Origin: Candidatus Multivoradales bacterium
Lineage (GTDB): Bacteria; Acidobacteriota; Thermoanaerobaculia; Multivoradales; Multivoraceae
Direction of reading: 5' to 3'
NCBI GenBank assembly: GCA_965223325.1
Contig: CBDCWI010000002.1
Span: 4,416,001-4,480,000, forward strand
DNA: 64,000 bases
Shown piece by piece: positions 33,406-64,000 of the stretch. The notes beneath the pieces were generated by a model, which did no database searches, was not told the DNA's origin, and saw only the letters and a program-made list of their open reading frames with translations. The position numbers were made by a program, and so were the translations under genes. Within the stretch, counting starts at the first letter, position 1. Every line of letters starts with the position of its first letter.

Positions 33406-33597
33406 GAGGCTTCGCCTCGAGACGTTCCAGGCACCTATGTTTCACGGCCATGCGAGGTTCACGCGCCTGCCGAGATTCACGAGCGTCAGCGGCCATCAGG
33501 AAAGTGAGGCCGCCTTGCCTCCAGCGGCGTGCCACCGGCGTTTTGCTGCCACGCGACGCCCCGCGAGGGGCTTGGAACAACGGCACTCGAAGGTGGG
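33406..33597 (+). mobile_element. Family A solo left end (~190 bp)
   Basis: GAGGCTTCGCCTCGAGACGTTCCAGGCACCTATG...GGCACTCGAAGGTGGG. Confidence 0.9.
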
Positions 33598-38038: not shown

Positions 38039-39016
38039 ATGTCTATTCTCCGATTTGTGCTCCCCGCGCTTCTAGTCGCGCCCCTTCATCCCTCTCCTCC
38101 AGAAAGAGACGTGACCACCGTGCCCTCTGGGACCCGCGCTCGCGCCGTTCTCGTGGATTGGCTCGGTTCACGCGGTACAGATGTTGGGGCCGAGCCGCTC
38201 TTCTGCCTCGATGAGGATGTCCACGCTGGCACGAGCACTTTGCTCAACCGCGGCATGCCGGTCGTGGGCATTGTGGATCGGGTGTCGACGGGCGGAGCCG
38301 GGTTTGACCCGGGCGACATCGCAGTTCGGCTCAAGGTCCTCCTGACACCGGACGGCGGGCGTATCTCGGTCTCGGGTTCCGGTTCTTTCGTCGGCGGGAG
38401 CAACGCCGCTAGTGCCGTGTGGGGGGGTCTGATGGCCCTGGGCACTCGCGGAGACGACGTGAAACTGCCGCCTGGAACGGCGATTGAGTTCGAGACGGCG
38501 GCCGAGGCGTCCTGGTCGCGCGAAGCGGAGGTTGACGGGCCAGAGTGGAGGCGCTGCCGTGACTTTCTCCAGTTCGCGCAACTCCCGGCTCTGCCTCTTT
38601 CCGAGCTCGAGACGGCCAAGACGTACCGGTGGCCCGGGAATGAACTGGTTGGAGACCTGGACGTCGCGGATCTCGAGGAGGGTTCGCAGACTCCCGTTCA
38701 ACTCCGGGGGGTCGTCATCTACGACGCCTTCTTGCTGAACACGAAGTTCGGCTTGACCCTTTCCAAGAAGAAGGCGGCTTTCGATCTCTCCACGATCATT
38801 CAGGTGCTCGAGTCGCACGATAAGCGCGTAGACATGCGGGTGAGTTTGCTCGATGGCGACGAAGTGCTCGCGACTGTTCTCAAGAAGGGAATCGACGCCG
38901 AGGAGGAGAAGGTCAAGAAGGTCGATCTCCGGCTTCGGACGGAGCGCGAGCTGTACGAGCGCGCGGTTAATTCAGGCGGCGGTCGACTTCGGCTGGAGAT
39001 GAAGGTGCGAGAGTAG
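38039..39016 (+). CDS. Secreted hypothetical protein
   Basis: Signal-like N-terminus; G.DVKLPPGT motif; long unbroken ORF. Confidence 0.6.
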   Translation: MSILRFVLPALLVAPLHPSPPERDVTTVPSGTRARAVLVDWLGSRGTDVGAEPLFCLDEDVHAGTSTLLNRGMPVVGIVDRVSTGGAGFDPGDIAVRLKVLLTPDGGRISVSGSGSFVGGSNAASAVWGGLMALGTRGDDVKLPPGTAIEFETAAEASWSREAEVDGPEWRRCRDFLQFAQLPALPLSELETAKTYRWPGNELVGDLDVADLEEGSQTPVQLRGVVIYDAFLLNTKFGLTLSKKKAAFDLSTIIQVLESHDKRVDMRVSLLDGDEVLATVLKKGIDAEEEKVKKVDLRLRTERELYERAVNSGGGRLRLEMKVRE

Positions 39017-39160
39017 TTCAGAGCCTAAGGGTCGAGCCAGTCTGAACCGCCCGATCGGGGTGGTCGGTGTTCGTTGGCGTCCCCAGGGAGTCGTCGGCCG
39101 CGTCACACTGTAGCTACGGGTACCGTCATTCGCCCTGGCGGCGTTCCGCGCCTGGCGGCT

Positions 39161-40676
39161 TTCAAGGCACCTATGTTTCACAGCCATTCGAGGTTCACGC
39201 GCCTGCCGAGATTCACGAGCGTCAGCGGCCATCTGGAAAGTGAGCCACCTTGCCTCCAGCGGCGTGCCACCGGCGTAGTACTGCCACGCGACGCCCCGCG
39301 AGCCGCTTGGAACAACGGCACTCGAAGGTGGGGGCCGTAACAAGAGCGCAGATTCTCGGGAGGTACGACTACCAGTTCGCCAAACAACGGCAGCTTCCTC
39401 CCCATGCGTTTCGCCAAGCCCAGGATCTACACGCCCAACCGCGTCGTCGAAGTCACCACGCGCTGCCTCCAGTCGCGTTTCCTCCTGCGCCCGAGCAAAG
39501 AAGTCAACAACGAGATCATCGCCGGCTCGTGCGCAGCGGCTCTACGGAGTGAGCGTCCACGCCTTCTGGTTCGGCTCAAACCACTGCCACCTCTTGCTGT
39601 CTGCCGCATCGCAGTGGCACATCTCGCGCCTCATGGGTTTCACCAACGGAAACATCGCGAGACGAGTTGGCCGGTTGCAGCGTTGGCAGCGAGCGGTTCT
39701 GGTGTCGCCGCTACCAGGGCATCGAACTCACCGCGGAGCCTCAAGCGGCGTTCCAGCGCCTGCGCTACGTCATGGCGCAGGGCTGCAAAGAAGGGCTGAT
39801 TGAATCGCCGCTTGACTGGCCCGGTGTGACGAGTGCTCGGGCTCTTGCCGACGGTTCGATGAAGCTCTCGGGCGTCTGGCTAGATCGCACCGGCTTGTAC
39901 CACGAGCGCGTCCGCCGAGGAGTTATAGGCCCGCGATCCAAACAGCTGAGCCGGAGCGAGCGTCGCGAGGCGAGTCGCAAGATCGACATCACCGAGTTCG
40001 AGACGGTCGAGGAGCTCACTCTCGAGCTTCTGCCGCACTTTGCCGAGCTGAGCGCCGAGGCCTACCGCAAGATGCTCGTCTCGATGATCGAAGACATCGA
40101 GGAAGAGACAGGCCAACGCCTCGATCTCGAAGGTGGGCGGAGCATGGGACGCGAGAAGATCCTCGCCCAGGACCCTCACGCCGCTCCGCGGCAGTCGAAG
40201 CGCAGTCCCGCCCCGGCCTGCCACGCCCACACCCGGGAACAGCGCGTCGCGTTCATCGTCAACCGCTGGCATTTCGTTGTGGCGTACAGGAGGGCGGCGA
40301 GTAGGTTGCGTTCGGGTGAGGAGAACGTCGCGTTCCCGCGAGGTTGCTTTCCGCCGCGTGGCGCGTTCGTTCCGCACGTGGCTCGCGCTCCTGGATAGAA
40401 GGACTTCAGAGTTGCGTCTTTTTGGGACGGCGAATCACGAGATCGCGGCGCGAGCTATGGCGCAGTCAACCGCGCAGCGGCTTGGACCGGCTTGGACGGT
40501 GGTTTGAGGCGTGGTCGCGCCGCGTTGAGGAGGTGTTTGGAGCGGATCTGTTTACGCAGGTTCAGTACGGCCGCAGACTTGGCTCCGGGATCCGACTCGT
40601 GAATCTCGGCATGCGCGTGAATTTCGCATGGCTGTGAAACATAGTTGCCTGGAACGTCTCGAGGCGAAGCCTCGGG
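39161..40676 (+). mobile_element. Family A HUH/Y1 element, frameshifted; left tip degenerate
   Basis: Left and right inverted ends around a transposase pseudogene. Confidence 0.9.
39404..40398 (+). pseudogene. tnpA: Family A Y1 transposase pseudogene
   Basis: Near-identical to 49097..50095 but with a 5-bp deletion near 39524 and a 1-bp insertion near 39688. Confidence 0.9.
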
Positions 40677-40943
40677 ACGGGAGTCCCTCACGCGAAGACT
40701 AGGCGAAAGAGGCCATGAGGCGCGCTCGGTGTGGTCGAAGAGGCGCTCTCACCTCGCCACCCGGATGCCGGGCGCATCCGCCTGCGCCTCGCCTCGCTGC
40801 TGGCTAAGTCGGACGAGACTACCGTCGCCATTCGAAAGGCGGCGCTGGCAATCGAGGTTCTCGCTGAGCATCTCGATCCAGCAAACCCTGAGTTGGCAGA
40901 GGCCCACGAGCTCCTTGACAGTCTCCAGTCAGGAGGCGTCTGA
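40677..40943 (+). pseudogene. 3' fragment of a TPR-like protein abutting the A right end
   Basis: LSPRHPD...LAEHLDPANPELAEA kinesin-light-chain-type TPR pattern; no convincing start. Confidence 0.45.
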
Positions 40944-44883: not shown

Positions 44884-46283
44884 GATCGCGCGGCGATGCC
44901 GCCCACGGTCGGGGGTAAGTTTTGAGTCGAAGTTGTGGCGCAGGGCCGGGACTCGCCACCGACCTGACGTGTAGCCCGATTCACAAATGACAGTTGGTCG
45001 ATGGCGAGGGTCATCCGCTAAGATTTCACTCCCTGCAGGACATCGATGGCTCCGGGCGAAGAGTCATGGCCCATCAACTGAGATACGTCCCCACCGACTC
45101 GAGCGGTTGGGGAGTCGTCGAAGTGACGGTGCGCATCGTCAACGGATTCTTCCTGTTGGCGCCATCGTCACGCCTGCGCGACCTGCTGATCGGGATCATC
45201 GGCCGCGCGCAGCGAAAGACCGAAATCCGGATCCACGCCCTGGACTACCAGGTCAATCATGCCCACCTTCTGCTGGGCGCTCGCGACGCCCAGCAGCTGG
45301 CCGATTTCATGCGGCGCATTCAGCACCAGACGAGTGTGGAACTACGGATCCTGCGCGGGTGGAAGGGTCCGAAATGGGAAGGGCCCTACAAGACGTCGTT
45401 CCCCGGTCACGCGAAGAAGGACCTCTGCCGGCGCTTTCGCTACATCCTTGCCCAGGGTTGCAAGGCGGGGTTGGTGTCTTCACCTCGCAAGTGGCCAGGC
45501 GTGTCGGTAGGGGAGGCGTTGTGGTCAGGGACCTTCGAGCTCGAGGGCACCTGGGTCGATCGTTCAGCGCTTCGTCGTGCCCGTTTCTCGAAAGCCGGTC
45601 GTCGTTTGAGCGAAAAGGACTTCTCGAGCCGCGAGACGGTCGTTTTATCGAAGCTTCCGTGCTTCGAGGACCTCCCTGACGAGGAGTACTTCGACTGGGC
45701 CCGCGGGATGATTGTTGAGATCGAGGACGAGACCCGGGTGCGCCACAAACGGGAGGGAACGAGGCCTCGCGGCGCCTACAAGACAACGCAGGTGAGTCCG
45801 ATGCGCCGTCCGAGGAAGCTCGATTGGGGGCCGAGGCCTCGGGTCATCGCGTCGGACTCGTTCGAGCGCAATCGGCTGCTTTCGGTTTTCGATGCGGTGA
45901 GGCGAGCGCATCGCGCGGCGCGCGATCTTCTGTGGAGTGGTGACCTGGAGGCGCGATTTCCGCCCGGGACTTTTCCAAGCCCGCTGCCGTTTGTGGCCCT
46001 GGAAGTGGCTGGGCCGGGTGCACGCGACGGTCCCTGAGTCCAGGCCGCCGCCGAAGAGGTTGACGAGGTTGAGGGGGACGCACCGGCAGGTGTGGTGGCG
46101 GAGCTGCGTCTGTCGGGTGGAGTGCCGAGGCTTCAGGGGTGGCGAAGGCGACGTCTCTGCCCTCGCGACACCCATCGAGGTGGTGAAAGAGGACGATGGA
46201 GTGCTTCGGAACTCGGCGCGTCGCCTTGTCTGGTGTTGCCGTGAAAACTTACCCCCTACCGTGCGCGGCATCGCCGCGCGATC
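44884..46283 (+). mobile_element. Family B HUH/Y1 element, complete (1400 bp)
   Basis: GATC-to-GATC with ~41-bp inverted ends. Confidence 0.92.
45066..46037 (+). CDS. tnpA: Family B Y1 (RAYT/IS200-like) HUH transposase, 323 aa
   Basis: HUH motif NHAHLLL; YILAQGCKAGLV..P..WPG; C-terminal FPPGTF. Confidence 0.88.
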   Translation: MAHQLRYVPTDSSGWGVVEVTVRIVNGFFLLAPSSRLRDLLIGIIGRAQRKTEIRIHALDYQVNHAHLLLGARDAQQLADFMRRIQHQTSVELRILRGWKGPKWEGPYKTSFPGHAKKDLCRRFRYILAQGCKAGLVSSPRKWPGVSVGEALWSGTFELEGTWVDRSALRRARFSKAGRRLSEKDFSSRETVVLSKLPCFEDLPDEEYFDWARGMIVEIEDETRVRHKREGTRPRGAYKTTQVSPMRRPRKLDWGPRPRVIASDSFERNRLLSVFDAVRRAHRAARDLLWSGDLEARFPPGTFPSPLPFVALEVAGPGARDGP

Positions 46284-46486: not shown

Positions 46487-47885
46487 GGGCGGCGATGCCG
46501 CCCCCGGCCGCCCCCGGTCGGGGGTAAGTTTTGAGCCGAAGTTGTGGCGCAGTGCGACGCCTCGCCACCGACCGGACGTGTAGCCCGATTCACAAATGAC
46601 AGTTGGTCGATGGCGAGGGTCATCCGCTAGGATTCGGCTCCCTGCAGGACATCGATGGCTCCGGGCGAAGAGTCATGGCCCATCAACTGAGATACGTCCC
46701 CACCGACTCGAGCGGTTGGGGAGTTGTCGAAGTGACGGTTCGAATCGTCAACGGGTTCTTCCTGTTGGCGCCATCGTCACACCTACGCGACCTGCTGATC
46801 GGGATCATCGGCCGCGCGCAGCGAAAGACCGAGATCCGGATTCACGCCCTGGACTACCAGGTCAATCATGCTCACCTTCTGCTGGGCGCTCGCGACGCCC
46901 AACAGCTGGCCGACTTCATGCGGCGCATTCAGCACCAGACGAGTGTGGAACTACGGATCCTGCGCGGGTGGAAGGGTCCGAAATGGGAAGGGCCGTACAA
47001 GACGTCGTTTCCCGGTCACGCGAAGAAGGACCTCTGCCGTCGTTTCCGCTACATCCTTGCCCAGGGTTGCAAGGCGGGGTTGGTGTCTTCACCGCGCAAG
47101 TGGCCAGGCGTGTCGGTGGGGGAGGCGCTGTGGTCAGGGACCTTCGAGCTCGAGGGCACGTGGGTCGACCGCTCCGCGCTTCGACGTGCTCGTTTCTCGA
47201 AAGCGGGGCGTCGTTTGAGCGAAAAGGACTTCTCGAGCCGCGAGACGGTCGTCTTATCGAAGCTTCCGTGCTTCGAGGACCTCCCGGACGAGGAGTACTT
47301 CGACTGGGCCCGCGGGATGATTGTAGAGATCGAGGACGAGACCCGGGCGCGCCACAAGCGAAAGGGCACGAGGCCTCGCGGCGCCTACAAAACGACGCAA
47401 GTGAGTCCAATGCGTCGCCCGCGGAAGCTGGATTGGGGGCCGAGGCCTCGGGTCATCGCGTCGGACTCGTTCGAGCGCAATCGGCTGCTTTCGGTTTTCG
47501 ATGCGGTGAGGCGAGCGCATCGTGCGGCGCGCGATCTTCTGTGGGGTGGTGACCTGGAGGCGCGGTTTCCCCCCGGAACTTTCCCAAGCCCGCTGCCGTT
47601 CGTGGCCCTGGAAGTGCCTGGGCCGGGTGCACGCGACGGTCCCTGACGGCCCAGGCCACCGGCGAAGAGGTTGAGGGGGACGCACCGATCGGTGTGTTGG
47701 CGGAGCTCCGTTTGTCGGGCGGAGTACCGACGTTCAGGAGTGGCGACGGCGAGGTTTCTGCCTTCGTCACCGCCCTTCGAGGTCGGAGAAGAGGGCGATG
47801 GAGCGCGCGAAGGCTCGGCGCTTCGTCCAGTCCAGCGTTGCCGTCAAAACTTACCCCCGACCGTGCGCGGCATCGCCGCGCGATC
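46487..47885 (+). mobile_element. Family B element; left tip degenerate with a 10-bp duplication
   Basis: GGGCGGCGATGCCGCCCCCGGCCGCCCCCGGTCGGGGGTAAG ... CGCCGCGCGATC. Confidence 0.9.
46675..47646 (+). CDS. tnpA: Family B Y1 HUH transposase
   Basis: Near-identical to 45066..46037. Confidence 0.88.
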   Translation: MAHQLRYVPTDSSGWGVVEVTVRIVNGFFLLAPSSHLRDLLIGIIGRAQRKTEIRIHALDYQVNHAHLLLGARDAQQLADFMRRIQHQTSVELRILRGWKGPKWEGPYKTSFPGHAKKDLCRRFRYILAQGCKAGLVSSPRKWPGVSVGEALWSGTFELEGTWVDRSALRRARFSKAGRRLSEKDFSSRETVVLSKLPCFEDLPDEEYFDWARGMIVEIEDETRARHKRKGTRPRGAYKTTQVSPMRRPRKLDWGPRPRVIASDSFERNRLLSVFDAVRRAHRAARDLLWGGDLEARFPPGTFPSPLPFVALEVPGPGARDGP

Positions 47886-48836: not shown

Positions 48837-50352
48837 CGCCTCGGCGAGCGAGGTTCCAGGCACCTATGTTTCTCAGCCATGCGAGGTTCACGCGCCTGCC
48901 GAGATTCACGAGCGTCAGCGGCCATCAGGAAAGTGAGCCACCTTGCCTCCAGCGGCGTGCCACCGGCGTAGTGCTGCCACGCGACGCGCCGCGAGCCGCT
49001 TGGAACAACGGCACTCGAAGGTGGAGGCCGTAACAAGAGCGGAGATTCTCGGGAGGTACGACAACCAGTTCGCCAAACAACGACAGCTTCCTCCCCATGC
49101 GTTTCGCCAAACCCAGGATCTACACGCCCAACCGCGTCGTCGAAGTCACCACGCGCTGCCTCCAGTCGCGTTTCCTCCTGCGGCCGAGCAAAGAAGTCAA
49201 CAACGAGATCATCGCCGTCCTGGCTCGTGCGCAGCGGCTCTACGGAGTGAGCGTCCACGCCTTCTGGTTCGGCTCAAACCACTGCCACCTCTTGCTGTCC
49301 GCCGCATCGCAGTGGCACATCTCGCGCTTCATGGGTTTCACCAACGGAAACATCGCGAGACGAGTTGGCCGGTTGCAGCGTTGGCGCGAACGTTTCTGGT
49401 GCCGCCGTTACCAGGGCATCGAACTCACCGACGAGCCGCAGGCCGCCTACCAGCGCCTGCGCTACGTCTTGGCGCAGGGCTGCAAAGAAGGGCTGATTGA
49501 TTCGCCGCTTGACTGGCCCGGTGTGACGAGTGCTCGGGCTCTTGCCGACGGTTCGATGAAGCTCTCGGGCGTCTGGCTCGATCGCACTGGCTTGTACCAC
49601 GAGCGCGTCCGCCGAGGAGTTATTGGCCCGCGGTCCAAACGGCTGAGCCGGAGGGAGCGTCGCGAGGCGAATCGCAAGATCGACATCACCGAGTTCGAGA
49701 CGGTCGAGGAGCTCACTCTCGAGCCCCTGCCGCACTTTGCCGAGCTGAGCGCCGAGGCCTACCGCAAGATGCTCGTCTCGATGATCGAAGACATCGAGGA
49801 AGAGACAGGCCAACGCCTCGATCTCGCAGGTGGGCGGAGCATGGGACGCGAGAAGATTCTCGCCCAGGACCCTCACGCCGCTCCGCGCCATTCGAAGCGC
49901 AGCCCCGCCCCGGCCTGCCACGCCCACACCCGGGAACAGCGCGTCGCGTTCATCGTCAACCGCTGGCATTTCGTTGTGGCGTACAGGAGGGCGGCGCGTA
50001 GGTTGCGTTCGGGTGAGGAGAACGTCGCGTTCCCGCGAGGTTGCTTCCCGCCGCGTGGCGCGTTCGTTCCGCACGCGGCTCGCGCTCCTGGATAGAAGGA
50101 CTTCAGTGTTGCGTCTTTTGTGACGGCGATCACGAGATTCGCGGCGCGAGCTATGGCTTTGGTTGTTGCGCTGGCGACTCGAGGGCGGTTCGAGGCGTGA
50201 CCGGGCCTTGGCGACCGGTCGTTTCGCGCGAATCGGTTAGCGCGCGCTCGGCAAAGCGGTGAGTTTCGCGCCGGAGTCTGCCTCGTGAATCTGGATATGC
50301 CCCTGAAGCTCGCTTGGCACCGAAACATAGTTGCCTGGAACGTCTCAGGCGA
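48837..50352 (+). mobile_element. Family A element with a divergent right-end allele
   Basis: Left end at 48837; right end CTCGTGAATCTGGATATGCCCCTGAAGCTCGCTTGGCACCGAAACATAGTTGCCTGGAACGTCTC. Confidence 0.9.
49097..50095 (+). CDS. tnpA: Family A Y1 (RAYT/IS200-like) HUH transposase, 332 aa
   Basis: EVTTRC...FLLRP, SNHCHLLL (HUH), FWCRRY, YVLAQGCKEGLI..P.DWPG, FPRGCFPP. Confidence 0.88.
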   Translation: MRFAKPRIYTPNRVVEVTTRCLQSRFLLRPSKEVNNEIIAVLARAQRLYGVSVHAFWFGSNHCHLLLSAASQWHISRFMGFTNGNIARRVGRLQRWRERFWCRRYQGIELTDEPQAAYQRLRYVLAQGCKEGLIDSPLDWPGVTSARALADGSMKLSGVWLDRTGLYHERVRRGVIGPRSKRLSRRERREANRKIDITEFETVEELTLEPLPHFAELSAEAYRKMLVSMIEDIEEETGQRLDLAGGRSMGREKILAQDPHAAPRHSKRSPAPACHAHTREQRVAFIVNRWHFVVAYRRAARRLRSGEENVAFPRGCFPPRGAFVPHAARAPG

Positions 50353-50363
50353 GAACTCGGCGC

Positions 50364-50481
50364 GGACACCCATCGAGGCGGTGAAAGAGGACGATGGAGT
50401 GCTTCGGAACTCGGCGCGTCGCCTTGTCTGGCGTTTCCGTGAAAACTTACCCTCGACCGTGCGCGGCATCGCCGCGCGATC
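50364..50481 (+). mobile_element. Family B solo right end fused to the A right end
   Basis: Matches 46167-46283 closely; ends CGCCGCGCGATC. Confidence 0.9.
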
Positions 50482-50633
50482 TCGACAGGCTTCCCGGTCG
50501 AATGAAGTCCGGCCCCGCTTAGGAACGGCCATGGAAGCCATATTTACTTGATTTAACAAGTTTAGGATTTATTGTAGAATTCTAACGATGGCTCAATAGA
50601 CGCCAGCAACCTCACGGTCAAAGGACCCTGCCC

Positions 50634-53147
50634 ATGCAACTCGCTGTCGCCACTGGTGTCCCAGTCACCACCCGCTGTCGAAGCCTCCCCGGGGCATGTT
50701 CCCGTGGCCGAGGTCGCTCTGCGGCGCTGGCCGCTGTCGTTTTCGCCGGAGTGATCGTGGGCCCTGCGATGGGCCAGGGGCCCCGCGCGCTCGCAAAAGC
50801 AGCAGAGAACGCCGTCGAGGCGCAGCGTTACAGCGAAGCCATCGAACTACTCGAGAAGGCCGTCGAAACCAGTCACTCCAAGGCGCGGTTCGTCGAGCGC
50901 CTCGCAGAGATCAAGCAGGAAGGTGCCCAATGGGCAGCTATGACCGGGCTCTCGGGTCACCCAACGGATCTGGAGCGGTCCGTGAAGTGGCTTGGGTTGG
51001 CGGAACAGTGGGCGCCGAAGCGCACATCTGTCGCCGTGCTACGTCACGTGGTTGAATCGGAGATCGCACGCCGTCGGGCTGTGCTTGCGGAGGCGATCGA
51101 AGAAGCTCGTGCGGGCCGGGTCGGCCGCGCCGTTCAACTTGGCGAAAGCGTCGCCTCGAGAAGTCTAGAAGCACCAGAGACCAAGCTGCTGGCCGAAGAA
51201 CTCGAGCTTCAAGAATCTCTGAGAAAGGCTCGCGAACAGGTGGAGGCGAACCCCGTCGCCGAAGAGGCTTTTCATGCGGTATCTCGCCTCATTGGCCCGG
51301 CAGGCAGTCGGCCGGCTGTAATCTCTCTCCGAGAGACAGTCGGTCGCGCCCAACTGGCGATTGCACAAGAACTACTAGCGGTGCCCGACTTGGCGGTTCA
51401 GGACGTCCATGCCGGCACCGAAGCGATTCTCAGAGCCGAGAAGGTATGTTCGGCCTGCCCGACCGAACCCATTAGAGGGCTGGTCGCAGAGCGGATTGAT
51501 GAGGTTTTTGGACCTCAGCTCGAGCAGTATCGGTCTCTGGGGCCACATGGGGCAGTCGCTGCAGATGTTCTACGGCAGAGCCTGATCAGGCTGTCACCGC
51601 AAAGGGCGACGACTTCGGGTGCCCTGCCTGAGTCGTGGCCCGACGTCGTTGTTTCTGTTGATTGGCTCAGCCCTGGCGACGCCTGCGATACGCCGCCAGG
51701 CCTTCCAGCGAGGCTCACTGACCAGTTACCAACCGTACCGCCGGGTTCAAGAAAGAGCCCGGCCATCGACCAAAGTCCTGACCTGGTCGTCCGAGTATCC
51801 CTCACTCAGTGCGAGAGCCGGGCGATCAATCCGCGGGAAGTGCAGGTTCGTTCGTCATCGTACAGGGCCGGGTCACAACAGATCGCCAACCCTGAGTATG
51901 CAAGGCTTCAGGAAAACGTCAACGCTGCGACGACTAACCTTCGAACAGCCCAGTTGAACCTGGCGAACTCGGCTCAGAACATGAAGGCCTTCTACCAGGG
52001 GCAAGTGCTGGGCGGCCAGATATCCCTGGGAATGCTCCAGGGGAAGCTGAACCGCACGCCGCCCTACCTTGAACGCCCGGTCATTCAGCCCTACACCTAC
52101 GAAGAGTATGAAAAAGCTCTTGTTGTCTCGGTTGCGGGCTCGATCTCACTGGTCGACGCGCACGACCGCGGCGTACTGGTCGTAGTTCCCGTCGAAAGCT
52201 CCGTCGAGGCCTCTGCCTGGGGTCGCCGCGGCGTCTTTGGGGAGGACGTAGGCGGCCTCACCAATTCCAGCCCACAGATTCCGGAGACCTTGGCGGAGCT
52301 GGCTGACCATGCCACTGTAGACGTGTCCGAAAGAGCTCTGGGGATCGTCACTGAATACGCAAGCCGTTGGGCCCTCGTTCGGGCAGTCAAAGCAAGGCAA
52401 GGCGGCTCGGATAGAGGCGCAGCGGCGTGGATGGTCGCCGAGGCAATCCTCTCCAACGAAGATGCCGAACCTGGCCTGCTCGCCCCGGACCTCGTTGCGA
52501 AGCTGCTAGCAAATGACCCTCACGCGGCCTCATCCATGGTTCCCGACGTCGCTACGTTCTGCCAGAACCCGAGCGCTAAGAGCTCTACTCTCTGCGGTGG
52601 TGAGAATCGCTCGAGAACGAGTCGCGGGACGGCGGAGGAAAGTGAGAGTTCAGCGAGCGCAGCTGTGTTGGGGAAAGCGACCGATTACAGGGGATATCAG
52701 GAGAGGCGCTCAACCGGTTCTCGCACAGGCCGGGGCGGCAGTTGCGAGAGCGGTCACCAGATCGAAGTCGTGAGTCTTGGTGGAGAATTTGTCATCCTCG
52801 AAGACATGTCTGTGTGGAAAGTCGACGGCTTGGAGGCGCTCGAAACCAGCCTCTGGCATCGCGGAAACTCCGTGACGAGGTGTGACTCCCGTCTCGTCAA
52901 CATGGACTTGAACGAAGTCGTGACCGTGGAGCAGGTCTCGAGAGCGAGCGGTTCCATTCACGCGGTGGAGGCCGCCGACGATGGCCTCTTCGTCATCAAC
53001 GGCGCGATCTTTGAGGCGAAGACCTACTGTTCAGTTGCCCGTGGGGATGAGGTTCTCTTCATCGATGGCTCGGCGAGTGGCGTCTGCGTCAGCGCGTCGC
53101 TTCTGTCTCTGGGCTCTGCGCGTGTCTGCCGCGTCTGGTGCAAGTAG
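50634..53147 (+). CDS. Large secreted hypothetical protein (TPR-like N-terminus, two small Cys-rich C-terminal domains)
   Basis: 837-aa ORF after an AT-rich promoter-like stretch; signal-like segment; NPEY..LQ; CESGH and KTYC..VWC domains. Confidence 0.7.
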   Translation: MQLAVATGVPVTTRCRSLPGACSRGRGRSAALAAVVFAGVIVGPAMGQGPRALAKAAENAVEAQRYSEAIELLEKAVETSHSKARFVERLAEIKQEGAQWAAMTGLSGHPTDLERSVKWLGLAEQWAPKRTSVAVLRHVVESEIARRRAVLAEAIEEARAGRVGRAVQLGESVASRSLEAPETKLLAEELELQESLRKAREQVEANPVAEEAFHAVSRLIGPAGSRPAVISLRETVGRAQLAIAQELLAVPDLAVQDVHAGTEAILRAEKVCSACPTEPIRGLVAERIDEVFGPQLEQYRSLGPHGAVAADVLRQSLIRLSPQRATTSGALPESWPDVVVSVDWLSPGDACDTPPGLPARLTDQLPTVPPGSRKSPAIDQSPDLVVRVSLTQCESRAINPREVQVRSSSYRAGSQQIANPEYARLQENVNAATTNLRTAQLNLANSAQNMKAFYQGQVLGGQISLGMLQGKLNRTPPYLERPVIQPYTYEEYEKALVVSVAGSISLVDAHDRGVLVVVPVESSVEASAWGRRGVFGEDVGGLTNSSPQIPETLAELADHATVDVSERALGIVTEYASRWALVRAVKARQGGSDRGAAAWMVAEAILSNEDAEPGLLAPDLVAKLLANDPHAASSMVPDVATFCQNPSAKSSTLCGGENRSRTSRGTAEESESSASAAVLGKATDYRGYQERRSTGSRTGRGGSCESGHQIEVVSLGGEFVILEDMSVWKVDGLEALETSLWHRGNSVTRCDSRLVNMDLNEVVTVEQVSRASGSIHAVEAADDGLFVINGAIFEAKTYCSVARGDEVLFIDGSASGVCVSASLLSLGSARVCRVWCK

Positions 53148-53214
53148 ACCTGCGAATCGTCACGCAGACCTGATCGAGCGCTACTTCGGAGAGATGCGTG
53201 CAGCGCGGTTGCCT

Positions 53215-53259
53215 GATCGCGCAGCGATGCCGCGCACAGTCGGGGGTAGGTTTTGAGCC
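53215..53259 (+). mobile_element. Family B solo left end
   Basis: GATCGCGCAGCGATGCCGCGCACAGTCGGGGGTAGGTTTTGAGCC. Confidence 0.85.
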
Positions 53260-53268
53260 CTCGGGGGG

Positions 53269-53445
53269 GGCACCCTCGTGAAGGATCTCATCGAGCAGGC
53301 TGCGGGAGTCCGAAACCGGAAACTCGTGGATCGTGGCGGCGGAAGTAGACTCGGACATGGTGGCGTATCTCCTTTGCCCTCGCGGGCGATTGGGGGGTTA
53401 GGCAACCCCAGGATACGCCGCCCTTCTCATCTACTCGGAACCCGA
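53269..53445 (-). mobile_element. Remnant of an IS256-like left end with ~30 transposase codons
   Basis: GGTTGCCTAAC...AGGAGATACGCC-ACC-ATG leader; N-terminus ...SLLDEILHEGA. Confidence 0.55.
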
Positions 53446-53463
53446 CCCCCGCCTGGCGGGGCC

Positions 53464-54986
53464 GACGCTCCAGGCACCTATGTTTCATAGCCATGCGAGG
53501 TTCACGCGCCTGCCGAGATTCACGAGCGTCAGCGGCCGTCAGGAAAGTGAGCCACCTTGCCTCCAGCGGCGTGCCACCGGCGAAGTCCTGCCAGGCGATG
53601 CCCCGCGAGGCGCTTTGAACAACGGCACTCGAAGGCGGGGGCCGTAACAAGAGCGCAGATTCTCGGGAGGTACGACAACCAGGATCGCCAAACAACGGCA
53701 GCTTCCTCCCCATGCGTTTCGCCAAGCCCAGGATCTACACGCCCAACAGCGTCGTCGAAGTCACCACGCGCTGCCTCCAGTCGCGTTTCCTCCTGCGCCC
53801 GAGCAAAGAAGTCAACAACGAGATCATCGCCGTCCTGGCTCGTGCGCAGCGGCTCTACGGAGTGAGCGTCCACGCCTTCTGGTTCGGCTCAAACCACTGC
53901 CATCTCTTGCTGTCCGCCGAATCGCAGTGGCACATCTCGCGCTTCATGGGTTTCACCAACGGAAACATCGCGAGACGAGTTGGCCGGTTGCAGCGTTGGC
54001 GCGAGCGGTTCTGGTGTCGCCGTTACCAGGGCATCGAACTCACCGACGAGCCGCAAGCCGCCTACCAGCGTCTCCGCTACGTCTTGGCGCAGGGCTGCAA
54101 AGAAGGGCTGATTGATTCGCCGCTTGACTGGCCCGGTGTGACCAGTGCTCGCGCTCTTGCCGGCGGCTCGATGAAGCTCTCGGGCGTCTGGCTAGATCGC
54201 ACCGGCCTGTACCACGAGCGCGTCCGCCGAGGAGTGATCGGCCCGCGATCCAAACAGCTGAGCCGGAGCGAGCGTCGCGAGGCGAATCGCAAGATCGACA
54301 TCACCGAGTTCGAGACGGTCGAGGAGCTCACTCTCGAGCCCCTGCCGCACTTTGCCGACCTGAGCGCCGAGGCCTACCGCAAGATGATCGTTTCGATGAT
54401 CGAAGACATCGAGGAAGAGACAGGCCAACGCCTCGATCTCGAAGGTCGGCGGAGCATGGGACGCGAGAAGATTCTCGCCCAGGACCCTCACGCCGCTCCG
54501 CGGCAGTCGAAGCGCAGCCCCGCCCCGGCCTGCCACGCCCACACCCGGGAACAGCGCGTCGCGTTCATCGTCAACCGCTGGCATTTCGTTGTGGCGTACA
54601 GGAGGGCGGCGCGTAGGTTGCGTTCGGGTGAGAAGAACGTCGCGTTCCCTCGAGGTTGCTTTCCGCCGCGCGGCGCGTTCGTTCCGCACGCGGCTCGCGC
54701 TCCTGGATAGAAGGACTTCAGTGTTGCGTCTTTTGGGGACGGCGATCACGAGATCGCGGCGCGAGTTATGGCGCAGTCAATCGCGCAGCGGCTTGGACTG
54801 GCTTGGACGGTGGTTTGAGGTGTGATCGAGCCGCGTTGAGGAGGTGTTTGGAGCGGATCTGCTTGCGCATGTCCAGTACGGCCGCAGACTTGGCTCCGGG
54901 ATCCGACTCGTGAATCTCGGCATGCGCGTGAACCTCGCATGGCTATGAAACATAGTTGCCTGGAACGTCTCCGAGGCGGCCTCGGG
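53464..54986 (+). mobile_element. Family A element, intact transposase
   Basis: GACGCTCCAGGCACCTATG ... TGGAACGTCTCCGAGGCGGCCTCGGG. Confidence 0.9.
53712..54710 (+). CDS. tnpA: Family A Y1 HUH transposase, 332 aa
   Basis: Near-identical to 49097..50095. Confidence 0.88.
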   Translation: MRFAKPRIYTPNSVVEVTTRCLQSRFLLRPSKEVNNEIIAVLARAQRLYGVSVHAFWFGSNHCHLLLSAESQWHISRFMGFTNGNIARRVGRLQRWRERFWCRRYQGIELTDEPQAAYQRLRYVLAQGCKEGLIDSPLDWPGVTSARALAGGSMKLSGVWLDRTGLYHERVRRGVIGPRSKQLSRSERREANRKIDITEFETVEELTLEPLPHFADLSAEAYRKMIVSMIEDIEEETGQRLDLEGRRSMGREKILAQDPHAAPRQSKRSPAPACHAHTREQRVAFIVNRWHFVVAYRRAARRLRSGEKNVAFPRGCFPPRGAFVPHAARAPG

Positions 54987-55545
54987 AGATCGAGGACGAG
55001 ACCCGGGCGCGCCACAAGCGAAAGGGCACGAGGCCTCGCGGCGCCTACAAAACGGCGCAGGTGAGTCCGATGCGCCGTCCGAGGAAGCTCGATTGGGGGC
55101 CGAGGCCTCGGGTCATCGCGTCGGACTCGTACGAACGCAATCGGCTGCTTTCGGTTTTCGATGCGGTGAGGCGAGCGCATCGTGCGGCGCGCGATCTTCT
55201 GTGGGGTGGTGACCTGGAGGCGCGGTTTCCCCCCGGAACTTTCCCAAGCCCGCTGCCGTTCGTGGCCCTGGAAGTGCCTGGGCCAGGTACACGCGACGGT
55301 CCCTGACGGCCCAGGCCACCGGCGAAGAGGTTGAGGGGGACGCACCGATCGGTGTGTTGGCGGAGCTCCGTTTGTCGGGCGGAGTACCCACGTTCAGGAG
55401 TGGTGAAGGCGAGGTTTCTGCCTTCGTCACCGCCCTTCGAGGTCGGAGAGGAGGGCGATGGAGCGCGCGAAGGCTCGGCGCTTCGTCCAGTCCAGCGTTG
55501 CCGTCAAAACTTACCCCCGACCGTGCGCGGCATCGCCGCGCGATC
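54986..55545 (+). mobile_element. Family B 3' half (transposase from EIEDET to stop 55306, plus right end)
   Basis: Begins directly after the A right hairpin. Confidence 0.88.
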
Positions 55546-56297
55546 TTCGAGCTCGAGGGCACCTGGGTCGATCGTTCGGCGCTTCGCCGTGCCCGTTTCT
55601 CGAAAGCCGGTCGTCGTTTGAGCGAAAAGGACTTCTCGAGCCGCGAGACGGTCGTGTTATCGAAGCTTCCGTGCCTCGAGGACCTCCCTGACGAGGAGTA
55701 CTTCGACTGGGCCCGCGGGATGATTGTTGAGATCGAGGACGAGACCCGGGTGCGCCACAAGCGAGAGGGGACGAGGCCTCGCGGTGCCTACAAGACGATG
55801 CAGGTGAGTCCGATGCGCCGTCCGAGGAAGCTCGATTGGGGGCCGAGGCCTCGGGTCATCGCGTCGGACTCGTACGAACGCAATCGCCTGCTTTCGGTTT
55901 TCGATGCGGTGAGGCGAGCGCACCGCGCGGCACGGGATCTTCTGTGGAGTGGTGACCTGGAGGCGAAGTTTCCGCCTGGCACTTTTCCAAGCCCGCTGCC
56001 GTTTGTGGCCTTGGAAGTGCCTGGGCCGGGTGCACGCGACGGTCCCTGACGGTCCGGGCCGCCGGCGAAGAGGTTGACAAGGTTGAGGGTGACGCACCTA
56101 TCGGTGTGATGGCGGAGCTGCGTTTGTCGGGCAGAGTGCCGAGGTTTCAGGGGTGGCGAAGGCGAGGTTTCTGCCCTCGCGATGACCGATCGAGGTGGTG
56201 GAGAAGGCTGATGGAGCGCTCTGGATTCGGCGCGGCGCCTTCGTCGGCGCTGCCATCAAAACTTACCCCCTACCGTGCGCGGCATCGCCGCGCGAAC
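55546..56297 (+). mobile_element. Family B 3' half (transposase from FELEGT to stop 56049, plus right end)
   Basis: Begins directly after the GATC of the preceding B end; terminal GAAC variant. Confidence 0.88.
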
Positions 56298-56342
56298 TGA
56301 CTACTTTGTCAGCTGCCTGGGAGGCCGACCGACTCATTTCAT

Positions 56343-56370
56343 CTGGAACGTCTCGAGGCGAAGCCTCGGG
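56343..56370 (+). mobile_element. Family A right tip only
   Basis: CTGGAACGTCTCGAGGCGAAGCCTCGGG. Confidence 0.8.
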
Positions 56371-57643: not shown

Positions 57644-59037
57644 GATCGCGCGGCGATGCCGCGCCCAGTCGGGGGTAAGTTTTGAGTCGAAGTCGTGGCG
57701 CAGGACCGGGACTCGCCACCGGCCCAACGTGTAGCCCGATTCACAAGATGACAGTTGGTCGATGGCGAGGGTCATCCGCTAGGATTCGGCTCCCTGCAAG
57801 GCATCGATGGTTCCGTGCGATGAGTCATGGCCCATCAACTGAGGTATGTCCCCACCGACGGAAGCGGTTGGGGAGTCGTCGAAGTGACGGTGCGCATCGT
57901 CAACGGATTCTTCCTGTTGGCGCCATCGTCACGCCTGCGCGACCTGCTGATCGGGATCATCGGCCGCGCGCAGCGAAAGACCGAAATCCGGATCCACGCC
58001 CTGGACTACCAGGTCAATCATGCCCACCTTCTGCTGGGCGCTCGCGACGCCCAGCAGCTGGCCGATTTCATGCGGCGCATTCAGCACCAGACGAGTGTGG
58101 AACTACGGATCCTGCGCGGGTGGAAGGGTCCGAAATGGGAAGGGCCCTACAAGACGTCGTTCCCCGGTCACGCGAAGAAGGACCTCTGCCGGCGCTTTCG
58201 CTACATCCTTGCCCAGGGCTGCAAGGTGGGATTGGTGTCTTCACCGCGCAAGTGGCCAGGCGTGTCGGTGGGGGAGGCGCTGTGGTCAGGGACCTTCGAG
58301 CTCGAGGGCACCTGGGTCGATCGTTCGGCGCTTCGTCGTGCCCGTTTCTCGAAAGCCGGTCGTCGTTTGAGCGAAAAGGACTTCTCGAGCCGCGAGACGG
58401 TCGTTTTATCGAAGCTTCCGTGCTTCGAGGACCTCCCTGACGAGGAGTACTTCGACTGGGCCCGCGGGATGATTGTAGAGATCGAGGACGAGACCCGGGT
58501 GCGCCACAAACGGGAGGGAACGAGGCCTCGCGGCGCGTACAAAACGACGCAAGTGAGTCCAATGCGTCGCCCGCGGAAGCTCGATTGGGGGCCGAGGCCT
58601 CGGGTCATCGCGTCGGACTCGTTCGAGCGCAATCGGCTGCTTTCGGTTTTCGATGCGGTGAGGCGAGCGCATCGCGCGGCGCGGGATCTTCTCTGGAGTG
58701 GTGACCTGGAGGCGCGGTTTCCCCCCGGGACTTTTCCAAGCCCGCTGCCCTTTGTGGCCTTGGAAGTGCCTGGGCCGGGTGCACGCGACGGTCCCTGACG
58801 GCCCAGCCCACCGGCGAAGAGGTTGAGGGGGATGCACCGATCGGTGTGTTGGCGGAGCTCCGTTTGTCGGGCGGAGTACCGACGTTCAGGAGTGGCGAAG
58901 GCGAGGTTTCTGCCTTCGTCACCGCCCCTCGAGGTCGGAGAAGAGGGCGATGGAGCGCGCGAAGGCTCGGCGCTTCGTCCAGTCCAGCGTTGCCGTCAAA
59001 ACTTACCCCCGACCGTGCGCGGCATCGCCGCGCGATC
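57644..59037 (+). mobile_element. Family B element, complete
   Basis: GATC-to-GATC with inverted ends. Confidence 0.92.
57827..58798 (+). CDS. tnpA: Family B Y1 HUH transposase, 323 aa
   Basis: NHAHLLL; YILAQ. Confidence 0.88.
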   Translation: MAHQLRYVPTDGSGWGVVEVTVRIVNGFFLLAPSSRLRDLLIGIIGRAQRKTEIRIHALDYQVNHAHLLLGARDAQQLADFMRRIQHQTSVELRILRGWKGPKWEGPYKTSFPGHAKKDLCRRFRYILAQGCKVGLVSSPRKWPGVSVGEALWSGTFELEGTWVDRSALRRARFSKAGRRLSEKDFSSRETVVLSKLPCFEDLPDEEYFDWARGMIVEIEDETRVRHKREGTRPRGAYKTTQVSPMRRPRKLDWGPRPRVIASDSFERNRLLSVFDAVRRAHRAARDLLWSGDLEARFPPGTFPSPLPFVALEVPGPGARDGP

Positions 59038-59142
59038 TGCCATCAAAACTCACCCCCTACCGTGCGCGGCCTCTCGGCGCGCCGCCCAGTACGGCGATGC
59101 CGTCAACCTTACCCCGACCGTGCGCAGCATCGCCGCGCGATC
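59038..59142 (+). repeat. Two extra tandem family B right tips
   Basis: TGCCATCAAAACTCACCCCCTACCGTGCGCGG... and TGCCGTCAACCTTACCCCGACCGTGCGCAGCATCGCCGCGCGATC. Confidence 0.85.
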
Positions 59143-63796: not shown

Positions 63797-64000
63797 CGCC
63801 GAGGCTTCGCCTCGCCTCGGCGACGTTCCAGGCACCTATGTTTCACTGCCATGCGAGGGTTCACGCCCCCGCCAAGGCTTCGCCTCGGCGATGTTCCAGG
63901 CACCTATGATTCACAGCCATGCGAGGTTCACGCGCCTGCCGAGATTCACGAGTGTCAGCGGCCATCAGAAAGTGAGCCACCCCGCCTTCAGCGGCGTTAG
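63797..64000 (+). mobile_element. Two tandem family A left ends; the second runs to the window edge
   Basis: CGCCGAGGCTTCGCCTC...GTTCCAGGCACCTATG at 63797 and again at 63870. Confidence 0.85.

Follow-up and report, generated by a model that had tools for sequence, protein, structure and literature searches.

The 64,000-nucleotide stretch of Candidatus Multivoradales bacterium DNA analysed here (the window) contains a gene for a Y1-type HUH enzyme set between long inverted ends, which raises the question of whether this structure is a transposon acted on by its own enzyme, a host-kept gene among repeats, or a relic spread by other means. The data presented below indicate that the structure, referred to as copy A5, is probably a copy of an insertion-sequence-like transposon with a long-form Y1 HUH gene, inverted arms and a tag plus hairpin caps, for which we infer a mechanism. 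The 1.5-kb element (53464-54985), in which a single 332-aa gene lies inside 63-nt inverted ends, and its immediate surroundings comprise the following features:

53447-53461, no strand: hairpin CCCCGC-CTG-GCGGGG just outside the left arm, from sequence and DNA fold
53464-53526, + strand: left inverted repeat, IRL-type (...CCAGGCACCTATG...), 63 nt, from the inverted-repeat call
53485-53501, + strand: putative decayed family-type end motif in the left arm, CATAGCCATGCGAGGTT, from by-eye comparison
53568-53585, + strand: second inward-reading motif, GCGTGCCACCGGCGAAGT, about 130-145 nt upstream of the ATG
53712-54710, + strand: Y1 HUH enzyme gene, 332 aa (H62, H64, Y123, Q127), from ORF, Pfam and structure
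54907-54969, + strand: right inverted repeat, IRR-type (...CATAGTTGCCTGGAACGTC), 63 nt, with a CGTC tag at 54966-54969
Right end: stretch ...GCCTGGAACGTCTC, then the hairpin cap
54971-54985, + strand: terminal hairpin cap CCGAGGC-G-GCCTCGG, the element's last part

The two arms are 95% complementary and 1380 nt apart, in agreement with the ~60-bp inverted ends of the initial annotation, which also correctly described a 332-aa protein and, in general terms, an element of Y1 type that has inverted ends and finishes in a hairpin. The left-end string quoted there is two bases off the actual letters of 53466-53524 (CGCTCC..., ...TTTCATAGCC), and the cap that it gave to A5, CCGAGGC-GAA-GCCTCGG, is the family consensus carried by sister copies; two bases of this loop are missing from A5. 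In its full family form the end continues outward from the arm: a tag containing CGTC comes first, then a GC-rich hairpin of 6-7 bp whose loop is GAA. At the left end of A5 the hairpin at 53447-53461 is 2 nt from the GACG (CGTC) tag and has the geometry of the right cap with another stem sequence; the 28-nt segment counted from the tag has a folding energy of -7.9 kcal/mol, while values of -6 or below are reached by 5.9% of 3000 random genomic 28-mers. In an alignment of the seven copies similarity fades just outward of the left arm, and this hairpin belongs either to the element or to its flank. With an intact gene, a cap short of two loop bases and a non-canonical left hairpin, A5 may have lost its mobility. 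With up to three mismatches allowed, the window contains 14 matches to a 17-mer from the arm, against 0.06 expected from shuffles. An Rfam search and a tRNA scan of the window returned nothing. Scanning 53300-55100 for promoters and terminators revealed neither a promoter-like site nor, at the cap, a terminator; as the cap is also followed by G-rich DNA without a T run, it is not an intrinsic terminator.

The A protein matches Pfam Y1_Tnp (E 2e-08, 34.8 bits against a cut-off of 23), and its gene is the only ORF in the A element with a family match. Foldseek aligned the structure model (pLDDT 87) with TnpA of ISDra2, IS200 and IS608 (E 1e-5 to 1e-3) and with TnpA-REP, while VIA-align placed E. 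coli TnpA-REP first (4er8_A; Z 15.0, rmsd 2.7, 156 of 165 residues) and IS608 second (Z 8.2). H62, H64 and Y123 are invariant in 20 sequences, and the catalytic tyrosine lies in the motif RLRY[VIL]L[AS][QHN]G, where A has Gln127 at Y+4; IS608 TnpA likewise has a Gln four residues past its Tyr. Whole-model Foldseek and VIA-align searches gave no clear structural match for the C-terminal ~190 aa, and residues 145-332 hit only unnamed clusters in the ESM Atlas (best 0.90). No HTH Pfam domain (Bac_DnaA_C, HTH_23 or HTH_28) matched the A protein at E <= 0.01, a PDB sequence search gave a chance match only (E 0.42), and tblastn of a plasmid collection gave no match. The best NCBIfam profile is REP_Tyr_transpos (NF047646), whose score of 37 bits is below its cut-off of 80; transpos_IS200 (NF033573) scored 19.7 bits, below its cut-off of 55.

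Seven near-full A copies, 90-100% identical (lowest 90.5%), are present in the genome together with solo ends. Besides A5 the window holds copies at 39157-40675 and 48850-50344, the start of another at 63890, and six solo ends, none of them mentioned in the initial annotation, including:

23684-23841, + strand: solo right-end fragment of A with a GAA cap, core 23826-23838
33406-33597, + strand: solo left-end fragment of A with a cap, 177 nt
39157-40675, + strand: sister copy A3, with a frameshifted gene (three tblastn pieces) and the right cap CGAGGC-GAA-GCCTCG at 40660-40674
48850-50344, + strand: sister copy A4, with left arm 48850-48912, intact gene 49097-50095 and variant right arm 50282-50344
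63890-64000, + strand: left end of sister copy A6, which extends past the window and keeps its left-arm cap

The A4 right arm is 79% complementary to the A5 left arm, and the A4 cap is degenerate; the A6 left-arm cap reads CCAAGGC-TTC-GCCTCGG on the + strand. All seven A genes are located between A-type arms; by tblastn four are uninterrupted and three are split by frameshifts. Between intact copies dN/dS is 0.13-0.17 in three pairs (19-23 synonymous versus 8-11 non-synonymous differences; pairs with copy A1 were left out as invalid, since an indel disturbs this unaligned comparison), showing purifying selection. The flanks differ in at least five A copies, with similarity stopping at the left arm and at, or no more than 6 nt past, the right cap. 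By eye, no direct repeat of flanking bases is present at six distinct A copy boundaries, which fits HUH chemistry and not a DDE enzyme. Long terminal inverted repeats are generally regarded as a DDE hallmark, and would be explained if a classical cut-and-paste element were moved in trans by a DDE transposase with the Y1 gene as its passenger. The lack of a target-site duplication, the Y1 gene's position as the sole ORF with a family match, and the recurrence across the protein family of a gene-plus-inverted-motif layout with clade-specific ends make this extremely improbable.

A search for A ends in the 6.7-Mb genome gave 24 matches; two of them (C2 284306 and C2 4319982) have flanks that do not resemble A ends and were discounted as chance. 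The remaining 22 (11 right-type, 11 left-type) are all on full copies or truncated remnants, and no dispersed doublets were seen among them. These numbers bear on the view that the gene is a domesticated RAYT in a REPtron, that is, a host-kept single-copy Y1 gene that spreads flanking hairpin repeats (REPs/REPINs). The structural match to the E. coli RAYT, the ranking of the REP_Tyr_transpos profile, the inverted hairpin-bearing repeats around the gene (as in REPtrons), the tandem end units at 58996-59141, on the right side of the related B element described below, and the name RayT on many homologues in IMG all favour it. It is nevertheless improbable, as there are seven gene copies, three of them broken, the few A ends reside on full or truncated elements, the NCBIfam score is less than half its cut-off, and the tag is CGTC rather than GTAG.

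The A copies all lie in one repeat-rich region, with two further solo ends at C1 1.79 Mb; two A copies and two solo ends are on the other contig. That the A and B families share one locus, as first annotated, holds in that both are in one region, which is better described as a co-oriented pile-up spanning the ends of both contigs. For some A copies the origin is segmental duplication or recombination instead of transposition: A7 combines the left flank of A3 with that found to the right of A5, and a flanking stretch of 536 nt, X, is duplicated along with A3/A7. From 54986 onward A5 adjoins the 3' 561 nt of a B element (94% identical, from B position 58478), and the matching left junction to this B interior is absent from the genome. 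Neither a transposition event, nor a circle junction, nor an empty site was found in the genome and public-run contigs: a search with the A flanks gave no clean filled-versus-empty pair in the genome, every placed junction in contigs from the four runs (of one study) that carry parts of the stretch matches one known from the genome, and the matches listed include no circle junction joining right to left end. No RNA run is listed among the public runs that carry the stretch. The clustering and co-orientation of the A copies, their demonstrably recombinant flanks, the numerous solo and truncated ends and the damaged A5 cap could reflect a dead repeat family, spread only by segmental duplication or recombination in a variable island, whose enzyme no longer acts on the ends. 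This is a doubtful reading, to be judged very unlikely, given the low dN/dS between intact copies, similarity boundaries that coincide with the ends in copies with unrelated flanks, and the two copies and two solo ends on the other contig. By hand tally 24 of 31 family genes are co-oriented with the leading strand; outside the cluster the count is 9 of 16, which gives no independent sign of lagging-strand targeting.

The caps are unevenly preserved. By eye, 8 of the 11 right-type A ends carry a hairpin with a GAA loop and a stem of 5 bp or more, as do 4 of the 11 left-type ends, with a fifth degenerate; the left-end cap is decayed in six of the seven full copies, so the data do not call for a mechanism that uses two symmetric hairpins. 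The 28-nt segment counted from the tag folds at -6 kcal/mol or below in 7/11 right-type and 4/10 left-type ends, compared with the 5.9% of random 28-mers; common descent of the A ends means that these counts are not independent. Of the 18 genomic occurrences of GAGGCGAAGCCTC, 8 are at A ends and 3 at a third end type that has its last 12 nt and the hairpin in common with A ends; the cap stem with three other loops has no genomic occurrence. Consensus folding (alifold) of 21 aligned ends revealed no conserved hairpin within the arms, and the CTATG-AAA-CATAG and CATGCG...CGCATG stems of A5, considered as conserved arm hairpins, are broken in the variant arms of A4/A6.

The disparity between right and left caps is a feature expected of a rolling-circle or one-ended variant, in which the right hairpin serves as a strand-transfer terminator (IS91/Helitron-like) and a looser left end carries upstream DNA along. 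In keeping with such a mode, the unit X+A3, in which the upstream flank precedes the element, recurs as X+A7, the duplicated unit starting 5 nt past the A6 cap and ending exactly at the right cap, and B 3' fragments adjoin A right ends, with no gap at A5 and A7 and at a distance of ~25 nt downstream for A4. The enzyme, however, has one Y1-type catalytic tyrosine region and is not the Y2 Rep of IS91/Helitrons, the long, symmetric A arms are unneeded by rolling-circle elements, and the X+A pattern can also be obtained by homologous recombination among the co-oriented copies; a rolling-circle element is thus an unlikely, though not negligible, alternative.

The pairing of enzyme and ends is informative for the preferred reading, a Y1 transposon. 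The B protein (window 57827-58798) aligns with the A protein over its full length (33% identity, E 7e-46), and the shared motifs first noted (FLL.PS, NHxHLLL, Y.LAQGCK.GL, FP.G.FP) are all in the alignment. The B ends, 42 nt long, are unrelated to A ends in sequence, and end in a hairpin, GCGCGGC-GAT/ATC-GCCGCGC, of the same 7-bp stem and 3-nt loop architecture, again as first described. Eight of ten B or B-like-75% genes tested sit between B ends and, among these ten and the seven A genes, no hybrid A/B enzyme-end pairing was seen. Pairing of enzyme clade with end type is therefore strict and consistent with the two enzyme/end pairs of the initial annotation, while its 'separate specificities' are suggested by co-occurrence. 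Other clades of the A/B protein family carry still other inverted ends, so that protein clade and end sequence co-vary, a relation that annotation had proposed to check.

Relatives elsewhere, mostly in Thermoanaerobaculia MAGs, were found with an alignment query; a single-protein query of genome and metagenome contigs gave none. The two closest proteins are 75% and 52% identical to that of A. The expectation that such homologues would share these ends does not hold for the 60-nt arms, present at none of the 67 testable homologue loci from other genomes; a flanking inverted repeat of score >=30 is absent from 51 of the 67. What the homologues do commonly have is a short inverted motif: inward-reading GGTGCCA lies upstream at 39 of the 67 loci, downstream at 33 and on both sides at 25, whereas the opposite orientation gives 2, 4 and 0. 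Hairpins are not enriched outside the homologues' end motif (6/111 outward versus 6/111 inward). The absence of 60-nt arms and the lack of cap enrichment elsewhere indicate that long arms with a hairpin cap are a speciality of the A and B lineages and not family-wide, and the relatives without caps suggest that the family as a whole may work primarily by something other than hairpin recognition. The A clade nests within the GGTGCCA-bearing clade (SH-aLRT 97, quick tree), and A ends appear to retain a decayed copy of the motif: the counterpart of CATAGCCATGCGAGGTT in the variant right arms of A4/A6 and in the sister clade is GGTGCCA[AT]GCGA, as judged by eye from the alignment of 21 ends and homologue end sequences (for example GGTGCCATGCGAAC at locus L055). 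The motif at 53568-53585 resembles, by resemblance only, the family motif AGGTGCCA[GC]CCGA[AT]TT.

How the transposon might move can be proposed from these features. By analogy with IS608 TnpA and E. coli TnpA-REP, the A enzyme would recognise the tagged hairpin as folded single-stranded DNA, and cleavage beside the hairpin would be effected by Tyr123 with a metal held by H62, H64 and Q127. Because the two A ends are inverted, both would present the same tag-plus-GAA-hairpin face, the right end on the top strand and the left end on the bottom one, a geometry that would correspond to that of a REPtron/REPIN and not of IS608. Within one strand, pairing of the 63-nt arms could draw both tips together. 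The inner GGTGCCA-type motif, a candidate, is probably the primary binding site of the family, perhaps for the C-terminal part of the protein, to which the outer 25 nt and the cap would be an A-lineage addition.

To our knowledge, the arrangement of a Y1 gene within long, hairpin-capped inverted ends has been described before and never tested at the bench, and the mechanism by which Y1 enzymes seated between inverted repeats (TIRYTs, and RAYTs with REPINs) move DNA is not known; the only biochemistry we know of concerns IS608/ISDra2, with same-strand ends, and cleavage and rejoining by one E. coli RAYT. The A and B families offer a compact test system, with two related enzymes, unrelated and well-delimited ends, several intact and several broken copies, and natural end variants (GAA loop, shortened loop, swapped stem). 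With the family-wide GGTGCCA end motif, such elements could be delimited by the hundred in MAGs of Thermoanaerobaculia and others. Should the element prove unremarkable, it would amount to no more than a new insertion-sequence family to annotate. A more far-reaching, and on balance unlikely, proposal is that A and B are living members of an undescribed Y1 subclass that transposes whole elements, an autonomous 'missing link' from IS200/IS605 to REPIN-RAYT systems and possibly an enzyme type for CGTC palindromes. It would be marked by a RAYT-like fold, by Gln/His/Asn at Y+4 in the manner of IS200, by a C-terminal part of ~190 aa whose fold is unmatched, and by cutting on opposite strands where tag-plus-triloop hairpins close the long inverted arms. 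Were this true, a gene-less A element would be a ready-made REPIN, and the A type could be the first candidate enzyme type for CGTC-tagged palindromes.

Among known systems, the E. coli TnpA-REP and its REPtron (Ton-Hoang 2012, PMC3333891; Messing 2012, PMC3479197) provide the best structural match, and share inverted flanking hairpin repeats with an unpaired tag 5' of the hairpin. The E. coli RAYT is single-copy and domesticated, accompanied by hundreds of GTAG-tagged REPs, and about 165 aa long, whereas A, in several copies and with 22 ends in all, carries a tag that contains CGTC and encodes 332 aa, of which ~190 form the extra part. A likewise departs from the RAYT pattern of about one gene per genome with a highly abundant, mostly gene-less flanking repeat, described in Bertels 2017 (PMC5581495), in having seven genes and 22 ends on full or truncated elements, and it has Gln at Y+4 where Table 1 of Quentin et al. 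2018 (PMC6006769) gives Y---NP for class-2 RAYTs. With IS200/IS605 (IS608, ISDra2) A shares the Y1 HUH fold, the single tyrosine, multiple copies, end hairpins and the lack of target duplication. These elements lack terminal inverted repeats and have two hairpins on the same strand in direct orientation (PMC6006769), while A has 63-nt inverted arms and tag-plus-hairpin modules at its two ends that are mutually reverse-complementary. IS200/IS605 TnpA is about 150 aa against the 332 aa of A, and tnpB is absent from the A element. TnpA-Y1 class 3 has Y----Q, about 178 aa and flanking structures with a CnGA foot (PMC6006769); the Gln of A is at Y+4, not Y+5, and the protein is longer.

CGTC-tagged palindromic repeats (Di Nocera, De Gregorio and Rocco 2013, PMC3733652) are like the A cap in being short GC-rich hairpins with CGTC on the 5' side, a resemblance only. 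They are high-copy, with 8-9-bp stems starting with A/T pairs, 4-5-nt loops and CCA tails, and that paper reports no associated transposase; the A cap has a 6-7-bp stem with an all-G/C foot, a 3-nt loop, a 1-2-nt spacer past the tag and a low copy number (18 genomic core copies). The closest described kind is that of the TIRtrons and their TIR-associated tyrosine transposases (TIRYTs), in which a RAYT-like Y1 gene lies within long terminal inverted repeats unrelated to GTAG REPs (PMC3733652); the A arm likewise contains no GTAG-tagged REP, and its gene is flanked by TIRs. Some TIRYT TIRs hold self-complementary tracts, moderately abundant TIR families exist, and one sharply defined group is acidobacterial (PMC3733652), a group compared with A by its description. 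The available portion of that paper reports gene-plus-TIR structures and not near-identical multi-copy whole elements, while A has seven copies with pseudogenes, and the GGGGWSAS motif of some TIRYT TIRs is, by eye, absent from the A arm. Quentin et al. (PMC6006769) assign 20 of the 26 TIRYTs to subclass 2.1, marked by an HTH tail together with Y---NP; the A protein shows neither an HTH tail match nor Y---NP. The A element thus reads as a variant of the TIRtron/TIRYT kind with new features.

The family-A copy under study (A5) is organized as follows.

Window 53447-53461: left outer hairpin, a perfect CCCCGC-CTG-GCGGGG, 2 bases outside the left arm
Window 53464-53526: left arm, 63 nt, 95% complementary to the right arm
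Window 53712-54710, + strand: Y1 gene, 332 aa, the sole long open reading frame (ORF) between the arms
Window 54907-54969: right arm, 63 nt, 1380 nt from the left arm, terminal sequence ...CCTGGAACGTC
Window 54966-54969: CGTC tag, the last bases of the right arm
Window 54971-54985: right cap, the hairpin CCGAGGC-G-GCCTCGG, 1 base beyond CGTC

The DNA from window 54986 corresponds to the last 561 nt of an element of the sister family B (94% identical, from B position 58478). As B-element DNA begins at this base, the right boundary of A5 is the foot of the cap hairpin, in agreement with the end implied by the coordinates of the initial annotation. The GAA loop that it assigned to the A5 cap is, however, a single G, and its left-arm string departs from the A5 sequence at two bases. 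The left outer hairpin (-7.9 kcal/mol) occupies the same position relative to the tag as the right cap but has a different stem.

A blastn search of the genome (6.69 Mb, two contigs, here C1 and C2, 64% G+C; the window spans C2 4416001-4480000) identified seven near-full copies of the element, of 90.5-100% identity, and A-type arms frame every copy (7/7). A 23-mer anchor matched at 24 places, which yielded 22 A ends after two were excluded as chance.

C2, window 39157, 48850, 53464 and 63890, and 65921 just past the window edge: A copies, five inside 28 kb
C1, close to the contig end: two A copies
Window 23684, 28594, 29589, 33406, 63566 and 63813: solo or truncated A ends
C1 1792118 and 1795525: solo or truncated A ends

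In an alignment of the seven copies with their flanks, inspected by eye, similarity broke off at the arm on the left and at the cap or up to 6 nt beyond it on the right, and no duplicated flanking bases indicative of target duplication were found. The gene is uninterrupted in four copies and split in three (tblastn). Pairs among three intact copies show 19-23 synonymous versus 8-11 non-synonymous differences (dN/dS 0.13-0.17), the pairs of the fourth intact copy being left out because an indel invalidated the comparison. GC skew is negative over the whole of C1 and switches on C2 at ~0.35 Mb and 3.45 Mb. The skew fits a single chromosome with the end of C2 joined to the reversed end of C1; the A/B-rich stretches at the two contig ends would then form a single region in which every copy has the same orientation.

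Diagnostic bases separate left-type arms (..CATAGGTGCC..) from right-type arms (..CATAGTTGCC..). The A-family consensus outward of GGAACGTC reads TC(C)GAGGC-GAA-GCCTCG(G). Inspected by eye, 8 of the 11 right-type ends carry a GAA hairpin with a stem of 5 bp or more, as do 4 of the 11 left-type ends, where a fifth is degenerate; only A6 among the seven full copies retains the left GAA cap. In 7/11 right-type and 4/10 left-type ends the 28-nt stretch from the tag has a folding energy of -6 kcal/mol or below, compared with 5.9% of 3000 random genomic 28-mers, an excess that is not a probability because the ends share descent. No conserved hairpin was found within the A arms. The genome contains 18 occurrences of the cap core GAGGCGAAGCCTC (8 A ends, 3 ends of a third type and 7 sites inside another repeat), and the cap stem with a GCA, GTA or GGA loop has no occurrence genome-wide. 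A terminator function was ruled out, since no T run lies downstream of the cap.

C1 2125106; C2 3820348, 3826030, 3829910, 4167813, 4171229 and 4400375: seven copies of the other repeat, with a GAGGC-GAA-GCCTC core
Window 56310-56370 (e.g. 56355), C1 near 2132730 and 2135713: third end type, ...GACTCATTTCAT-CTGGAACGTCTC plus GAA hairpin, 5 genomic matches

In the seven-copy repeat the core is nested in a longer stem (GGGTGC...GCACC). The third end type, positioned immediately past B right ends, has only its last 12 nt and the hairpin in common with A ends; a 26-nt piece of A gene lies right behind a third-type cap (C1 2132698-2132723). Ends of differing families are frequently in contact. The A1 cap (C1 2128540-2128560) is followed, 4 nt on, by an inverted end (CCCGAACTACCCGGTACA) belonging to a different clade within the A protein family, and at C1 1795520 a B end adjoins a solo A left end. 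The families may target one another's hairpins.

The A protein matches Pfam Y1_Tnp above the cut-off (2e-08); in NCBIfam it scores best against REP_Tyr_transpos (37 bits, cut-off 80), followed by transpos_IS200 (19.7 bits, cut-off 55). An AlphaFold model built from a 20-row alignment (pLDDT 87.3, pTM 0.85) was searched with Foldseek, in which the N-terminal ~130 residues matched TnpA of ISDra2, IS200 and IS608 as well as TnpA-REP. By exhaustive structural alignment Escherichia coli TnpA-REP (4er8_A) ranked first by far (Z 15.0, rmsd 2.7 Å, 156/165 residues), followed by IS608 (Z 8.2). H62 and H64 in the aligned motif SNHxHLL and Y123 in RLRYxLAQGCKEG are invariant, with Q/H/N at Y+4. The C-terminal part (about 145-332) gave no convincing match in whole-model structural or Atlas searches; RSPAPRFHA and FPxGCFPP are conserved in it.

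By tblastn, the genome carries some 31 complete or nearly complete genes for the A/B protein family. The B genes (window 57827-58798 and 45066-46034, among others) are 96-99% alike, and B ends are inverted, 40-46 nt long, and read ...GATC-GCGCGGC-GAT-GCCGCGC-CCAGTCGGGGGTAAGTTTTGA.

Window 44884-46283, 46507-47885 and 57644-59141, + strand: three full B elements
Window 54986-55546, 55542-56299 and 50369-50482, + strand: 3' B fragments
Window 58996-59037, 59043-59081 and 59097-59141: three tandem end units right of the B copy at 57644

The tandem units recall the REP/BIME clusters next to RAYT genes. As initially proposed, A and B are homologous (33% identical, E 7e-46) and their ends are alike in cap architecture alone. 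A clade 60% identical to B is flanked by CAGTCGGGGGGACTTTCC and a further clade by GTACCGGGTAGTTCGGGC; as A, B and these clades carry distinct flanking repeats, each clade has its own ends, and the proposed co-variation of protein clade with end sequence holds in this genome. Perfect hairpins with a 7-bp stem and 3-nt loop number 1088 genome-wide, with 28 (4.5 expected) in the 27.9 kb flanking family genes, nearly all of them B or A caps. Three neighbouring ORFs lie beside A or B ends.

Window 50634-53147: 837-aa ORF between A ends, no significant family match
Window 29884-32193: 769-aa ORF between A ends, no significant family match
Window 53089-53358, - strand: 89-aa ORF, start 53358, good ribosome-binding site

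Pfam searches returned no match for the 837-aa or 89-aa ORF, and the 769-aa ORF gave a weak, sub-cut-off NCBIfam match to an anammox S-layer model. The 89-aa ORF extends into a B end unit (53215-53254), which may have replaced its 3' portion.

A word-indexed search retrieved 365 related proteins, most of them 300-320 aa long with 41-47% identity and called RayT or transposase where named; many sit on contigs of 1.2-1.6 kb. Matches occur in 29 of 41 related genomes, frequently many in each. Relatives are encoded in 502 genome-contig stretches, the best 80 of which derive mostly from MAGs labelled Thermoanaerobaculia/Acidobacteriota, with some Myxococcota or Deltaproteobacteria. Among the 67 of 79 loci with sufficient flank, 16 displayed a flanking inverted repeat (score at least 30), compared with 2 and 3 in orientation controls and 5 in the best of 20 shuffles; none of the 67 had arms near 63 nt. 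These repeats have AGGTGCCA[GC]CCGA[AT]TT in common, reading inward on both sides. Inward GGTGCCA occurs within 350 nt upstream at 39 of the 67 loci, within 450 nt downstream at 33 and on both sides at 25, the opposite orientation giving 2, 4 and 0, respectively. Hairpins outside GGTGCCA are not enriched (stems of at least 6 in 6/111 outward versus 6/111 inward windows), an exception being one element of a relative's genome with CGTTCGC-TTC-GCGAACG right beside GGTGCC. At these loci, homologues elsewhere often share the short GGTGCCA motif, with no long arms and no enrichment of caps. A quick ML tree of 60 proteins places the A clade, together with two motif-bearing pairs (SH-aLRT 97), within a large GGTGCCA clade; B and its relatives make up a clade of their own (support 100). 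By eye, the A arms contain CATAGCCATGCGAGGTT 22-38 nt inward of the tag; at this place the variant right arms of A4 and A6 have CGGTGCCAAGCGAGCTT, and the sister clade has GGTGCCATGCGAAC. Given this motif and the motif-bearing relatives, we read the A arm, from sequence, as the family end motif with a ~25-nt outward extension and a cap.

The analysis shows that the Y1 catalytic residues are conserved, that enzyme and ends co-vary, that the element behaves as a multi-copy unit and that target duplication is lacking. By analogy with IS608/ISDra2 and TnpA-REP (PMC6006769, PMC3333891 and PMC3479197), the A enzyme would bind the folded hairpin within single-stranded DNA and cut beside it. Because the A ends are inverted, the face made up of tag and GAA hairpin would be presented by the top strand on the right and by the bottom strand on the left, like REPtrons and unlike IS608; the arms could pair within a single strand, drawing the tips together. 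The data also allow a one-ended or rolling-circle-like variant of movement, in keeping with a right cap that is better conserved than the left and with a duplicated unit (X, a 536-nt flank, plus A3 or A7) that stops at the right cap and starts 5 nt past the A6 cap, although recombination among co-oriented copies accounts for the same observations.

C2 4454631-4456680 (window 38631-40680): unit X plus A3
C2 4481395-4483440, beyond the window: duplicate unit X plus A7, from 5 nt after the A6 cap to the A7 cap

The duplication could reflect either transduction by an A element or recombination. The first ~45 nt of X resemble a decayed right-type A end (CCTGGACGTCGC).

A RAYT-like gene between long terminal inverted repeats was named TIRtron/TIRYT in 2013 (PMC3733652); a literature search for 'TIRYT' returned that paper and Quentin et al. 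2018 (PMC6006769) with its preprint, and no others. By the motifs tabulated in Quentin et al. 2018, the A protein falls outside all 12 subclasses, having an N-type HuH like classes 2 and 3 and Gln four residues past the Tyr like class 1. What is added here is a clearly multi-copy, IS-like variant of the TIRtron type, with a terminal tagged triloop hairpin on the A ends, an end motif that recurs across the protein family and a protein that, judged by its motifs, would lie outside the published subclasses.
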